Shown one piece after another: positions 1 through 54,061 of a stretch of 62,534 bases of DNA. Both the position numbers and the translations under genes were made by a program. Location of the stretch: assembly GCA_013333625.2 (NCBI GenBank), contig JABCOL020000001.1, positions 1 to 62,534 of the forward strand. Reading direction: 5' to 3'. Position 1 is the first letter of the stretch, and the number at the start of each line of letters is the position of its first letter. The notes beneath the pieces are model-generated. The model was not told the DNA's origin. It did not search any database and was given only the letters and a program-made list of their open reading frames with translations. This DNA is from Candidatus Saccharimonadota bacterium (GTDB taxonomy: Bacteria > Patescibacteriota > Saccharimonadia > Saccharimonadales > Saccharimonadaceae).

Positions 1-53
1 CCGGAATCGCGCTGTACGAGCTGGCGACGAGCGGCAAAACTGCCAAAAATGCC

Positions 54-125
54 TAAAATTTGCAAATTTTACGAAATAATTGCGAAAAGTATTGACTTCG
101 CAGTCCATATGTGATATATATATAT
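54..125 (+). promoter_or_regulatory. Cassette A promoter with upstream 18-bp palindrome
   Basis: TAAAATTTGCAAATTTTA 54-71; TTGACT 92-97, 17-bp spacer, TG-A-TATATA 112-120; same geometry in copies B and C. Confidence 0.7.
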
Positions 126-133
126 TAGCTTTT

Positions 134-183
134 CGCTCAAGTCATCACAAACAAAGGGCGAGAAGTGCCCTTTTACTTGAGCG
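134..183 (+). ncRNA. Structured 5' leader, copy A
   Basis: CGCTCAAGT 134-142 pairs ACTTGAGCG 175-183; AAAGGGC 153-159 pairs GCCCTTT 167-173; loop GAGAAGT; 10-nt 5' bulge. Confidence 0.7.
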
Positions 184-199
184 TGATTCTGGAGGAATC

Positions 200-616
200 A
201 TGAAGAGCTTTTTTGTTCACATCGTCGAGTTTCTTGCGCTGTTCGCCGCGGGTATCGCGGCCAGCCAGCTCATCAAGGGAGGACACCCCGCACTCTGGGT
301 GAGCATTCTCGTTATCTACGCGGGCATCATGTTGATGCGGCTCTGGTTTTCGAGAGTGGATCTCTCCATTAACAAGACACAGAAAGAGCTCCTGGAGGGG
401 CGTTTGACCACCGTGACGGCGCAGATGCGCCGGCTCGAGCTCGCACTCGTGGAGGCCTCCGTCGAGACCCTCTGGGTCTCGAGTGTTACTGAGGACGATG
501 ACGAAACCGTCTATGTAATCGAAACACCTAATCACGGGTGTTTCGTCATCATGACTCCAGCCGACAACGCCACCAAGAATGACAAGGACGCCCCCGCGGC
601 GCCCAACAAGGGCTAA
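200..616 (+). CDS. Hypothetical membrane protein, 138 aa, two N-terminal hydrophobic helices (cassette A cargo)
   Basis: GGAGG 191-195 before ATG 200; in frame with ORF 80..616; 10 of 15 Leu codons are CTC. Confidence 0.8.
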   Translation: MKSFFVHIVEFLALFAAGIAASQLIKGGHPALWVSILVIYAGIMLMRLWFSRVDLSINKTQKELLEGRLTTVTAQMRRLELALVEASVETLWVSSVTEDDDETVYVIETPNHGCFVIMTPADNATKNDKDAPAAPNKG

Positions 617-690
617 CCGCCCGCCTGAAAATAGCCCGCCTAGAGGCCACCAGCCTCGGCGCAAGGCCTTTCTGGCGGGCTATTTTCTTT
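617..690 (+). terminator. Cassette A 3' structure, probably also terminating convergent dnaE
   Basis: GAAAATAGCCCGCC 627-640 pairs GGCGGGCTATTTTC 674-687; inner hairpin GAGGC/GCCTC 643-657; T-rich tail. Confidence 0.75.
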
Positions 691-713
691 GGTCAAAATT
701 ATCTTACCCTAAT

Positions 714-41052: not shown

Positions 41053-41086
41053 TTGACATATTCTATTCTATTCTATTCTATATCAT
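41053..41086 (+). promoter_or_regulatory. Promoter with (TATTC)4 tract in the spacer
   Basis: TTGACA 41053-41058, (TATTC)4 41059-41078, TATCAT 41081-41086. Confidence 0.55.
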
Positions 41087-41134
41087 ACACTCTAGGCTGA
41101 GATGCAGCCATCCTTGAGTAGACAGGAGATGATC

Positions 41135-41344
41135 ATGCCGAACCGGCGCGATCTGAACGACATCGCCAGCTACCTCGTCCCTAACCCTGGCGACGAAGCG
41201 TGGGTTGTCGACCCCAACCAGCCTGAGCACATGCACCACGGCCAGACCTCTGGCGAACCGCACTCCGACGGGTACTACATGTACAACGAGGGCACGCCGA
41301 GCTGGCTGAAGTACCACTCCGACGACAAGGAGGACGAGGAGTGA
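41135..41344 (+). CDS. Small acidic His-rich hypothetical protein, 69 aa (divergent cassette D cargo)
   Basis: AGGAG before ATG 41135; only 8 of 69 codons end in A/T, inside an AT-rich neighbourhood. Confidence 0.75.
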   Translation: MPNRRDLNDIASYLVPNPGDEAWVVDPNQPEHMHHGQTSGEPHSDGYYMYNEGTPSWLKYHSDDKEDEE

Positions 41345-41360
41345 GATAGTCCTCGAGGAT

Positions 41361-41386
41361 GCCCCTCTCCACATCCAGAGAGGGGC
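41361..41386 (+). terminator. GC-rich 3' hairpin after ORF D
   Basis: GCCCCTCTC 41361-41369 pairs GAGAGGGGC 41378-41386; weak U-tract. Confidence 0.55.
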
Positions 41387-41414
41387 CATTCCCTGAATTA
41401 TATATAATATAGTC

Positions 41415-48633: not shown

Positions 48634-49290
48634 TTATTCCCCAGCCTTTTTGCTGTGCGCTGCCCGCCATTTAGCGATTTTGCCATGATGTCCGCTAAGT
48701 AGCACTTCTGGCACGCGCAAACCTTGCCATTCCTCGGGCCGGGTGTATTGCGGGTATTCTAGCGTTTCGCCGTCGCTGAAGCTCTCAATCGCTGCGCTGT
48801 TTTCGCCGCCGAGTACGCCAGGGATTAACCGCACAATCGAATCAATAATCGTCATCGCTGGCAATTCGCCGCCAGTTAGCACATAATCGCCAATACTAAG
48901 CTCTTGATCAACCAGCGCCATAATTCGCTCGTCGTAGCCCTCGTAGCGCCCGCAGATTACAATATAACCATCTTCGCTTTCGCTGTATTGCTGCGCCAAC
49001 GCCTGCCGCCAACGCTGGCCGCGCGGTGTCATGATTAAGACTTTAGCGCCAGGGTCAATCTGTTTAGCCTGCTGCACCGCATTCCATAGCGGCTCGACCA
49101 TCAGCAGCATACCATCGCCGCCGCCGTACGGCGTATCGTCGACCGTCCGGCGCGGGCCTAATCCAAACTGACGCAGATCAATCGTCGAGAGCTCAACATA
49201 GCCGTCTTTTTGCGCTTTCCACATCATCGAACTGCCGAACACGCCAGCGAACATTTCTGGGAATAAGGTAATCACCTGAATTTTTCTCAT
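48634..49290 (-). CDS. trmD: tRNA (guanine-N1)-methyltransferase
   Basis: VDDTPYGGGDGM, CGRYEGYDER, SIGDYVLTGGE, YPQYTRP. Confidence 0.97.
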   Translation of the reverse strand: MRKIQVITLFPEMFAGVFGSSMMWKAQKDGYVELSTIDLRQFGLGPRRTVDDTPYGGGDGMLLMVEPLWNAVQQAKQIDPGAKVLIMTPRGQRWRQALAQQYSESEDGYIVICGRYEGYDERIMALVDQELSIGDYVLTGGELPAMTIIDSIVRLIPGVLGGENSAAIESFSDGETLEYPQYTRPEEWQGLRVPEVLLSGHHGKIAKWRAAHSKKAGE

Positions 49291-49344
49291 CTGTTATAGT
49301 GTAGCAAGTCTTGACACGGATGTCTATCTGTGATATATATCAAC

Positions 49345-49393
49345 TTTTGCTCAAGGTAGTCTAGGGCGGAAGTCGCCCTTGCTTTGAGCAAAG
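49345..49393 (+). ncRNA. Structured 5' leader, copy B
   Basis: TTTTGCTCAAGGTA 49345-49358 pairs TGCTTTGAGCAAAG 49380-49393; AGGGCG/CGCCCT with loop GAAGT; 4-nt bulge. Confidence 0.72.
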
Positions 49394-49406
49394 AGAGGAG
49401 ACGGTC

Positions 49407-49577
49407 ATGAAGACCGTTACCGCCGCCGTCGCCCCTGACCCCGAGCCCACCGCTATCGAGCGTGCGCGTTTGCGCGCGCTTGATAACTACATCAAGGCCA
49501 AGCAGAAGGGGCGAATGTTCCGCGCGGCCTTTTGGGCCGGGGCCTTCTCAGGCCTGGGCGGCCTGAGAAGCAACTGA
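49407..49577 (+). CDS. 56-aa basic peptide MKTVTAAVAPDPEPTAIERARLRALDNYIKAKQKGRMFRAAFWAGAFSGLGGLRSN (cassette B cargo; absent from ORF track)
   Basis: Manual translation; GAGGAG 6 nt before ATG; fills the space between the conserved 5' and 3' elements. Confidence 0.78.
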   Translation: MKTVTAAVAPDPEPTAIERARLRALDNYIKAKQKGRMFRAAFWAGAFSGLGGLRSN

Positions 49578-49700
49578 GCCCACCGAAAATAGCTCGCTGA
49601 AAACTACTGTTCAATCCGGTTCGAGACGCACATTCCTGCGTTTCCTGGGTTGAATACCCAGTTTCCAGCTTGAGCACGTTTTCGGCGGGCTATTTTCATG
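49578..49700 (+). ncRNA. Cassette B extended 3' structure
   Basis: GAAAATAGCTCGCTGAAAAC 49585-49604 pairs GTTTTCGGCGGGCTATTTTC 49678-49697; inner helices TTCAATCCGG/CTGGGTTGAA and GAGACGCA/TGCGTTTC; non-Watson-Crick positions in these helices are G.U. Confidence 0.75.
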
Positions 49701-49876
49701 TCTTGCAATAATTTGCTACAATCTAGATTTTATTGCATAATAGTATTTGACTTATATTACGTTATATTTTATCTATATATTTGTGCTTTTACAAAAATAG
49801 TTGTATAGCCTCAATTGACACGTTTGGCTTTTCGTGTAATAAATTATGCCTGGCCTTCTCGAAATTTCGCCCCAAC

Positions 49877-49903: not shown

Positions 49904-50006
49904 CTTGCACAAATAAGTCTCTCAAACCATTTGTAGGTTTGCTCGCAGTAGAGCTTTTGTACTTTGTTTTCGTTAGTTCAGGGTTCTCGCATGAACTTAC
50001 TTATGA

Positions 50007-50414
50007 TTATATATCAAGGTCGTCTAGTTCTGCAAGCTCTTGGCGCGACTTTTTTGCGAAATCGCTTTCGGTTTCTGCGTTTTCTGGGTCATTTTCCACA
50101 GAATCACTAGTAGTGTTTTCCACATCATTATCCACTACAGCCGAATCGGCGTCCTCGCGCTCGTCATTATTGACGATTTTCAGGTTGTAATGAGCGGTAT
50201 TTTTAGCACCCAACGCCCGCAGCAGCGTGCGCAGGCCTTGCGCGGTCGAGCCGCGGCGGCCAATCACCCGGCCCAAGTCTTCTGGATTGACAGTTAGCGT
50301 CAGCAAAACACCCTTCTCGTCGACAATCCGGTCAACAACCACATCATCTGGATGTCCTACTAGTGATTTTACGATATATTCGACAAATTCCTGGTCAATG
50401 GTCGACATGCCCAC
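50007..50414 (-). CDS. khpA: KH-domain RNA-binding protein with acidic tail
   Basis: VEYIVKSLVGHP, DLGRVIGRRG (GxxG); directly downstream of rpsP. Confidence 0.88.
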   Translation of the reverse strand: MGMSTIDQEFVEYIVKSLVGHPDDVVVDRIVDEKGVLLTLTVNPEDLGRVIGRRGSTAQGLRTLLRALGAKNTAHYNLKIVNNDEREDADSAVVDNDVENTTSDSVENDPENAETESDFAKKSRQELAELDDLDI

Positions 50415-50901: not shown

Positions 50902-51170
50902 AAAATTAAAACTTCCTTTACTTCACGTTAGTACTATTGTTACTTCTGTCATATTCTAGCGTGTTACAGGTAAAATGTCAACAAAGCGCCTAAGCCGCCG
51001 CTTAGACGCCTTTTCGTTCAAGTCTAGCCTATTAACCAATTCAGGCAGAAAACACCGCTAGAGGGCGCAAAAACGGCCAAAACGGCTCAAAAACACTTAA
51101 AATTTGCAATTTTTGCGAAATAATTGCGAAAATCGTTGACATGGTGATTCATATGTGATATATATATATC

Positions 51171-51233
51171 AGCTTTTCGCTCAGAGTTACCGAAAAAGGA
51201 GCGAAAAGTCGCTCTTTTTGCTCTGTGGAAGCT
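51171..51233 (+). ncRNA. Structured 5' leader, copy C
   Basis: AGCTT/AAGCT, CAGAG/CTCTG and AAAAGGAGCGA/TCGCTCTTTTT helices; loop AAAG. Confidence 0.7.
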
Positions 51234-51248
51234 GGAAAGGAGAACGCG

Positions 51249-51497
51249 ATGGATGTCATCGTCGTCTCACTGCCTCTCATAGGAAGGTTCGCCTTTATCC
51301 CCGACAGAGATGTGCAGCTGGCTCTCAGCAACATGTCTGCGGAAGAGAAGCGAGTCGTTCTCGCTAACATGGAGAGACAGACAGCCTCTCTCCTGGCGCT
51401 CCAGTGTGCCGCCATCTTCGCCCCCGACATGTCGATCTCCAAGAGCATCGACTCTGGGTTGTACATCGCCAGTCAGATGGTGAAGATCAACTCCTAG
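51249..51497 (+). CDS. Hypothetical 82-aa protein (cassette C cargo)
   Basis: AAGGAG 6 nt before ATG 51249; codons biased to CTC/ATC/AAG/CAG. Confidence 0.78.
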   Translation: MDVIVVSLPLIGRFAFIPDRDVQLALSNMSAEEKRVVLANMERQTASLLALQCAAIFAPDMSISKSIDSGLYIASQMVKINS

Positions 51498-51500
51498 TGT

Positions 51501-51570
51501 CGAGCCCGCCGAAAATAGCTCGCTAGAGGTTTAAAACCTCAGCGCGGCCCTCTGGCGGGCTATTTTCTTT
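51501..51570 (+). terminator. Cassette C 3' structure, probably also terminating convergent rnc
   Basis: GAAAATAGCTCGCTAGAGG 51511-51529 pairs CCTCTGGCGGGCTATTTTC 51549-51567; alternative inner hairpin GAGGTT/AACCTC. Confidence 0.75.
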
Positions 51571-51576
51571 GGTTTT

Positions 51577-53596: not shown

Positions 53597-54061
53597 ATGA
53601 GTCATGAACAAAACGTTGGTAAATCCGAGAAATTAATTACTACTGCCGCTGCCATAGGTTTGAGCGCAGCAGCGTTAACAGGCTGCGGCGTCGGCGACTA
53701 CGGAGCCAGTAGTGCCGAAACCTCCAACCCAGCAGCTGTAGCCGAGCAGAAAGCTGTCGAGCTGGTCGACGAATATAGCGAACACCCCGAGAAATTCGAT
53801 GAATCGGCGATTGTCCGCGTAGAGGTTCCAGAAGGTAGTAGCGTTAATGGAGCGGCTACCGCCTATGTTGATCAATACGGACAAGAGCAAGGCTGGACGG
53901 GCCCGCAGCGCGATTTAGGACACGGCATTGTCAATGAGGCTGCCGCCGAAATCAGCGGCGTACCACACCCAGGCGCAGAAGTAATCATGTATCATGTCGA
54001 TCTGAACGGTGACGGCACCGTCGATGTTACGCCCGTTGGCGTCGAAAATCCAACAAAGTAA
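53597..54061 (+). CDS. Putative lipoprotein, acidic, with DxNxDG motif
   Basis: Ala-rich h-region, lipobox LTGC; DLNGDGTVD near C-terminus. Confidence 0.7.
   Translation: MSHEQNVGKSEKLITTAAAIGLSAAALTGCGVGDYGASSAETSNPAAVAEQKAVELVDEYSEHPEKFDESAIVRVEVPEGSSVNGAATAYVDQYGQEQGWTGPQRDLGHGIVNEAAAEISGVPHPGAEVIMYHVDLNGDGTVDVTPVGVENPTK

Follow-up and report, generated by a model that had tools for sequence, protein, structure and literature searches.

Phage morons are autonomous units of promoter, ORF and terminator set between conserved genes of a phage or prophage, atypical in composition and variable in presence. Integron cassettes are promoterless ORFs held in a tandem array, with an attC site that has RYYYAAC...GTTRRRY ends. 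Among type I toxins, AapA1/IsoA1, TxpA/RatA and Fst/RNAII combine a transmembrane helix with a Shine-Dalgarno (SD) sequence that is often sequestered by 5'-3' pairing, as set out in the portion of the published account consulted here (PMC8167048). The cassette analysed below, from a Saccharibacteria genome, resembles each of these in part. No description of such cassettes was found in the literature searched (subscription journals and preprint supplements lay outside its scope, and the consulted part of PMC10746230 held nothing relevant), and the cassette system is undescribed in the searchable literature. The stretch of DNA analysed as a whole, called the window here, is 62,534 nt long; in it trmD (-), the cassette (+), khpA (-) and rpsP (-) follow one another, and the features that bear on the argument are these:

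44..693, + strand: sister cassette A, a 138-aa membrane protein (ORF 200-616) in the same wrapper, convergent with dnaE
48634..49290, - strand: trmD, flanking gene and control for divergence
49298..49326, - strand: promoter-like site for trmD, divergent and overlapping the cassette -35
49311..49339, + strand: cassette promoter as read from the sequence, with -35 TTGACA (49311-49316), TG (49331-49332) and -10-like TATATA (49334-49339)
49342..49392, + strand: 5' leader, a long stem (49347-49391) around an inner hairpin (49363-49379)
49393..49400, + strand: Shine-Dalgarno sequence GAGAGGAG, partly exposed
49400..49418, + strand: short hairpin whose loop holds the AUG, retained by most alleles and present in compensatory form at 2 of 35 loci
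49407..49577, + strand: 56-aa ORF with an ATG start, present in the window; GC3 0.80, host-type codons, over-folded
49578..49697, + strand: 3' trailer RNA, a GCCC spacer and then a terminator-like closing stem with a three-way junction
50007..50414, - strand: khpA, flanking gene
51088..51573, + strand: sister cassette C, 82 aa (ORF 51249-51497) in the same wrapper, convergent with rnc

Comparison of orthologous loci confirms the 56-aa ORF as a real, conserved gene within a shared wrapper, as a sequence-only reading of the trmD-khpA interval had proposed. The slots were gathered by DNA similarity and by the promoter-leader pattern in metagenomes (24 loci), a collection independent of the 56-aa ORF itself. 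The frame is open, over 50-65 codons, at 48 of the 49 complete loci next to trmD, a count that leaves out L060 and L065, cut by contig ends, and in which some loci may be the same strains (36 distinct CDS, 35 distinct peptides); the one exception, L059, is a deletion in which the frame reads into the trailer. Length changes among alleles preserve the frame in the same 48 loci, the SD is present in every allele, and the two other + strand frames at this position are open in merely 2 and 4 of the 36 distinct alleles. The ORF exactly fills its wrapper, as had been claimed, and its TGA directly abuts GCCCACC at 49578; in 60 of the 62 cassettes collected the stop lies no more than 25 nt from the first trailer arm. 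A protein identical to the 56-aa peptide is present in a public protein collection on 20 contigs, so gene callers do call this ORF elsewhere. L059 and the proteins P0020, P0021 and P0024 appear to be deletion alleles, two of them reading into the trailer, and may be real variants or assembly errors; the database cluster of the 56-aa peptide (P0001) also lists an unrelated 337-aa eel protein, which looks like a database artefact.

The earlier reading had suggested comparing the interval across strains for empty sites or swapped cargo, and both were found: in more distant genomes, the trmD slot is empty in G037 and holds unrelated cargo in G005 (84 aa) and G014 (42 aa), the slot contents of L041-L047 being left out of this survey. 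In the consulted part of the supplement of PMC10633639, trmD and khpA are consecutive loci in a table for Southlakia epibionticum. The rimM gene said to be common in this interval is indeed absent from it; PF01782 was found in none of five related genomes, one of them with an empty slot, which speaks against the cassette as a specific replacement of rimM.

The cassette promoter has a perfect TTGACA and a TG before its -10, and was omitted by a consensus promoter scan because the -10 TATATA lacks the final T that the scan requires. Its predicted back-to-back arrangement with the trmD promoter was upheld, since the - strand promoter-like site (49326-49298) overlaps the cassette -35. A (TA)n run after the -10 (49333-49341 and orthologs) is of strain-variable length and could shift the start site. 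The fold of the leader and its 5' end are the same in other cassettes, and one of the 20 pairs in the leader stem is changed on both sides; the SD downstream has a mean unpaired probability of 0.46 (range 0.07-0.79, 29 alleles). At the other end, 49585-49604 pairs with 49678-49697 to form the closing stem of the trailer, which encloses a three-way junction and has the ends GAAAATAG and CTATTTTC. In the trailer alignment 98% of cells are paired and 6 of 33 pairs are changed on both sides, a covariation better than in 500 of 500 shuffles and in all slid controls, though of moderate support because the structure comes from that very alignment, whose sequences are related to one another. The changes in these pairs tolerate G-U, which argues that the trailer acts as + strand RNA. 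Pairing of leader with trailer amounts to 0.9 bp, and a search of the window with Rfam at gathering score returned merely two tRNAs, together with one sub-threshold match outside the cassette.

Two structures lie beyond the trailer. The region 49700-49850 has a GC content of 0.18-0.24 and several promoter-like sites on both strands, and its repeat resembles an element upstream of cassettes A and C; it may consist of relics of emptied cassettes or be an antisense promoter. Just after khpA (approximately 49905-50005, - strand), a conserved, structured-looking motif precedes the khpA terminator in 11 of 13 loci checked, including genomes with an empty slot; it has no Rfam match, and could be a 3' regulatory RNA or a ligand of KhpA.

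Parts of the wrapper recur within the window at 44-693 and 51088-51573 (whole-window repeat search, families D1, D3 and D11), and there are nine DNA matches to it in the nearest genome (G001). Searches with promoter-plus-leader patterns, blind to GC content, collected 53 distinct CDS in 14 unrelated families; with both wrapper ends required, there are 62 cassettes at seven slots in 12 families. In all, seven or more chromosomal slots carry unrelated cargo in this wrapper. Each of the 12 cargo families keeps to one slot, and five of the seven slots hold two unrelated families. Movement of whole transcripts between slots was considered and rejected, all 12 families being single-slot while merely promoters and trailers are shuffled between slots; the exception is a distant homolog of the 56-aa gene in G020. 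Most of the other cargo families carry transmembrane segments. A covariance model of the trailer detects it in 86 of 105 genomes of the genus and 3 of 141 in the order, and the exact wrapper pattern occurs in 4 of 151 order genomes, three of these being chance matches; by these models the wrapper is not order-wide. Phased TTGC(G/A)AA repeats precede the -35 of cassettes A and C (44-86 and 51088-51130) and are a candidate site for a co-induction regulator.

Like morons, the cassettes appear at the sequence level to have their own promoter and terminator between conserved genes, and they are variably present and atypical in composition. Unlike morons they sit in chromosomal housekeeping slots, share one covarying RNA wrapper across unrelated cargo, and carry GC-rich, host-type cargo where morons are AT-rich. 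There is neither phage context nor a phage homolog: the flanks are trmD/khpA, dnaE and rnc, and two viral pattern matches are due to chance, inside other genes. With integron cassettes they have in common a single ORF with an imperfect inverted repeat of 54-123 nt behind it, and swappable cargo. However, each has its own promoter, the units are single and dispersed rather than arrayed (20 regions scanned), each family is fixed to one slot, the trailer ends do not match the attC consensus, and the G-U-tolerant covariation indicates RNA.

The 56-aa peptide has a Pro/Thr-rich disordered N-terminus followed by a basic helical hairpin (helices 16-34 and 37-55), also the shape of its AlphaFold model (pLDDT 70), for which the PDB holds no significant fold match. 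Its conserved core, R..L.AL...A...G.P.RAAFWxG, comprises 33 ungapped residues in which A, G and W are kept in a helical pattern (A in 36/36, G in 36/36 and W in 35/36 alleles) and the remaining positions vary freely. All alleles are basic, with charges of +2 to +11. The hydrophobic Gly-rich end reported earlier is allele-specific, other alleles ending in RRRWYSH or DSLKG. The family is present in 27 of 105 genus genomes, 26 of them close relatives and the last that of the G020 homolog, which is at another site far from trmD.

Mean amino acid identity among alleles is 45% (351 pairs), whereas the adjoining trmD is 97-99% identical. Over 351 pairs, pN is 0.38 for the 56-aa gene and 0.010 for trmD, and pS is 0.47 and 0.20, respectively; leader and trailer differ by 0.11 and 0.06 in the same comparison of alleles. 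Positive selection is not formally shown by these values, since pS (0.47) exceeds pN (0.38). Alleles have been reassorted between strains, as indicated by identical peptides in strains whose trmD differs by 4.8%, near the 5.6% of other pairs, and by failure of the four-gamete test at 95 of 276 site pairs of the gene. This extreme polymorphism fits an effector in an arms race, and to that extent the earlier proposal of a small effector is supported. The membrane activity proposed with it gains no such support: no allele has a transmembrane stretch (maximum 19-residue Kyte-Doolittle mean at most 1.13, 35 loci scored), which makes a classic membrane toxin unlikely, even though helix 1 is amphipathic.

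The same observation bears on a self-acting type I toxin, or a moron-like anti-phage gene, silenced by folding of its mRNA and by antisense RNA. With type I toxins the cassette shares a peptide below 60 aa (50-65 aa in 48 loci), a heavily folded mRNA and a two-way terminator stem; transcription from a - strand promoter-like site at 49794-49766 could run into the trailer, and the hypervariability would also fit phage pressure. It differs from them in lacking a transmembrane helix, in having no long-distance 5'-3' lock (leader-trailer pairing of about 1 bp), in an SD that is partly open and not consistently hidden, and in its many unrelated cargo families; opposite the other slots are housekeeping genes, with no dedicated antisense gene or antitoxin. 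The peptide has no PHROG match, and host-type codons would go unexplained, so that we consider such a role improbable. Among the features tested, the cassettes thus lack some that define each of the three classes, morons, type I toxins and integron cassettes.

The strongest signals, both missed by the first reading, are the codons of host type and the over-folding of the coding RNA. The three cassettes of the window have a GC3 of 0.75-0.80, while no real long gene there exceeds 0.64. Three codon models were compared, built from own genes, own highly expressed genes and Actinomyces phage xhp1; with the actinomycete chromosome G258 and Schaalia turicensis (G259), this phage serves as a proxy for a host, and the proxies may not represent the true host. 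The xhp1 model is best for 49 of 53 cargo CDS, 12 of 14 families and 29 of 29 alleles of the 56-aa gene, and is favoured by none of 44 window genes, 491 G037 genes or 30 highly expressed genes. In a blind ranking, ORF 49407-49577 came first among 58 SD-led ORFs of the window. Codon preferences of the cargo correlate at 0.82 with G258 (whose gene calls include some wrong-frame ORFs), at 0.57-0.67 with S. turicensis and at 0.03-0.20 with own genes. At its contig ends the G258 assembly, titled Xylanimonas cellulosilytica (2.5 Mb), carries the xhp1 integrase three times at 92% identity; it is probably a Schaalia-like genome under a wrong title.

The cargo uses CCC, TCC, CTC, AAG, GAG and CAG, which own genes including tuf avoid or use far less. 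An optimum for high expression was rejected as the cause: own tuf, at a GC3 of 0.70, lacks TCC and uses GAA, AAA, CAA and CCG. The signature resembles that of a host without being identical to it, because AGA and AGG are far commoner in the cargo (0.13-0.23 each) than in the proxy chromosomes (0.02-0.04; 0.03 and 0.11, respectively, in xhp1) and because a model built from other cargo beats the G258 model for 18 of 29 alleles of the 56-aa gene. Among distant members of the genus, one of eight wrapped ORFs is host-like against G258 and three look decayed; the G020 homolog is not host-like by this measure (GC3 0.54, LLR -0.14). Elsewhere in the window, 41054-41400 (+) is a fourth host-like orphan unit, whose acidic, His/Trp-rich ORF of 69 aa (41135-41344) has a homolog in G037, eight unnamed homologs and no Pfam match; it has a TTGACA, an (ATTCT)n run and a hairpin of its own, in a wrapper different from that of cassettes A-C. 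At 53597-54061 (+), a 154-aa lipoprotein-like orphan runs against its neighbours' direction, with no Pfam match and a GC3 of 0.50.

Such codons could have been brought in by capture from an unsampled high-GC donor, a host phage or mobile element, with the genes placed behind parasite promoters, translated by the parasite and drifting to own usage. The dinucleotide signature of non-B cargo, nearer to G258 (86) than to own genes (209-240), agrees with this, as does the less GC-rich and sometimes decayed cargo of distant lineages. No donor turned up, however, in protein sets of 5.8 billion and 1.84 billion or in 50,697 phages. The 56-aa peptide has seven close homologs, all of the same family; a profile search gave 17 matches, of which 16 are family-sized and one is repetitive and chance-like, and there was no match in PHROGs, phage DNA, Pfam or the ESM Atlas. 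For the other cargo the best PHROG match (one of 36 proteins) has an E-value of 4.6e-5, and none is above the Pfam cut-off. Also against capture, alleles differ at synonymous sites more than twice as much as trmD does, and even so their invariant third positions number 18 GC to 1 AT (51 to 45 in trmD); over-folding, too, persists across very different alleles. The frequency spectrum of synonymous change gave no direction as to whether GC3 is maintained or decaying. On this balance we consider capture doubtful.

Stand-alone host-like genes also occur in two other Saccharibacteria families, 23 in 400 kb of G040 and 10 in 267 kb of G052, a few of these calls probably being spurious frames. Their leaders are rich in C (0.32-0.37; own genes 0.19-0.21, G258 0.34), and most of the genes are not over-folded. 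In G052 (L251:2940-4402) they include purE-purC, with a best PurC homolog at 55%, and in G040 pyrF, a Bmp-family lipoprotein and an RNA polymerase alpha-CTD fusion (L245:13061-14038, L238:10242-11354 and L237:10503-11111). Host-like purE-purC beside own-like purB in G052, with own-like purD elsewhere, would again suit foreign capture. A role for such genes as auxiliary metabolic cargo boosting host nucleotides was dropped: pyrF is host-like in 0 of 29 other genomes, and purB and purD of G052 are own-like. OMP decarboxylase is above the Pfam cut-off in 85 of 201 order genomes and dihydroorotate dehydrogenase in 73 of 201, often adjacent (L266-L295), and pyrimidine synthesis genes are more numerous in this group than usually assumed.

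For the predicted cassette transcript the folding energy is -185.9 kcal/mol (z -9.85), a stability reached by none of 100 shuffles. Tested against synonymous shuffles, its coding part is the more stably folded in all 29 alleles (mean z -3.5); the same holds for 13 of 13 other cargo families (mean z -3.1), compared with +0.15 for 12 own genes. The z of the whole transcript, the covariation of the trailer and a pN close to pS would be expected if the folded RNA were the functional molecule and the ORF incidental, with GC-biased gene conversion inflating GC. Against this stand the frame that survives length changes in 48 of 49 loci, the helical pattern of the conserved residues and the SD kept in every allele; moreover, biased conversion would not favour C over G. 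We regard an RNA with an incidental ORF as very improbable, the least likely of the readings considered here.

Folding as the sole cause of the codon signature was not reproduced in a crude simulation: when own usage was selected in silico to equal folding, all 16 runs remained non-host-like, with LLRs of -0.31 to -0.02 against +0.24 to +0.44 for the native genes. Selection for folding alone did raise GC3, to 0.55-0.75, and this favours a close rival of the reading that we rank first, namely that the parasite translates the mRNA itself, and that the peptide either acts where the two cells meet or leaves the parasite as a protein effector. Gene conversion would then have spread the wrappers as nothing more than common modules of promoter, stability and terminator function, and the odd codons would stem from folding together with an old foreign origin. 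The shuffling of promoters and trailers and the basic charge of the peptide are in keeping with this; the full set of tRNAs (47 genes) and the CCTCC anti-SD of G037 suggest that the parasite is equipped to translate cassette mRNAs, and own housekeeping genes use SD sites. Export of protein by the type IV secretion system has been proposed, in the part of PMC10633639 consulted. Synthesis in the parasite leaves CCC, TCC, CTC, AAG and GAG unexplained, given that own genes avoid them even when highly expressed, and the negative folding-only simulation counts against it as well. It is a serious possibility, a close second to the reading that follows.

In that reading, which we put first but hold tentatively, the product of the 56-aa gene would be an effector aimed at the host, and the structured mRNA would be handed over, to be translated in the host cell. 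What the sequences show is frame conservation, polymorphism, the shared wrapper, RNA covariation, the codon signature and over-folding, with no donor found. A Saccharibacteria epibiont would carry a set of stand-alone genes at fixed slots, each with an AT-rich promoter of the parasite that yields a short mRNA, folded throughout and bounded by the conserved 5' and 3' RNA domains. Most likely it would be this mRNA, and not the protein, that crosses into the actinobacterial host, perhaps via the essential relaxase-less type IV secretion system, and host ribosomes would translate it; this would explain host-type codons behind a parasite-type promoter. The product, a basic helical hairpin, would combine a fixed core with a diversifying surface; this, together with the exchange of alleles among strains, is the pattern of an effector whose host target is variable. 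Because folding of the RNA is what selection acts on, RNA is a likelier candidate cargo than DNA or protein; transmembrane cargo may favour host translation, since synthesis within the target cell would be simpler than injection. Extended to the whole set, delivery of folded host-codon mRNAs into actinobacterial hosts, with the 5' and 3' domains as export or stability signals and the relaxase-less channel as the route, is a serious possibility too, marginally less likely. Transcription, translation, the host target, transfer and its channel are what we infer; every step beyond sequence analysis is of this kind, and the mechanism is unproven.

Type IV effectors and the T-DNA genes of Agrobacterium are comparable in that parasite genes are apparently tuned for the host cell, are polymorphic, and belong to an organism with an essential type IV secretion system. 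The cassettes differ from T-DNA in that the promoter is parasite-type and the coding region alone host-type, and in that no relaxase or border repeats are known for them. A VirB4/TraG-like ATPase (PF19044 above cut-off) is present in five of five related genomes. In the consulted parts of three publications (PMC10633639, PMC11665869, PMC12102498), the secretion system of this lineage is described as essential, without a relaxase and with no known substrate, and the consulted part of another reports that hosts mount an Esx defence (PMC13622651). Against hand-over of mRNA stands the translation apparatus of G037, whose full tRNA set led us to reject obligate host translation from missing tRNAs. 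The less host-like cargo of distant members, the excess of AGA/AGG, the limited range of the wrapper and the host-like genes without over-folding likewise count against it, and no precedent for mRNA transfer between bacteria was found in the literature searched.

Host manipulation by Patescibacteria and the cargo of their type IV secretion are stated as open questions in the parts of PMC11665869 and PMC12102498 consulted. The cassettes offer a concrete list of candidate substrates, findable by codon score and RNA model, in a group that is genetically tractable. If protein alone acts, this would still be a hypervariable effector-like locus, likely bearing on host range. If mRNA moves, direct delivery of mRNA from bacterium to bacterium would be a new mode of bacterial parasitism, and possibly an RNA-delivery tool for actinobacteria.
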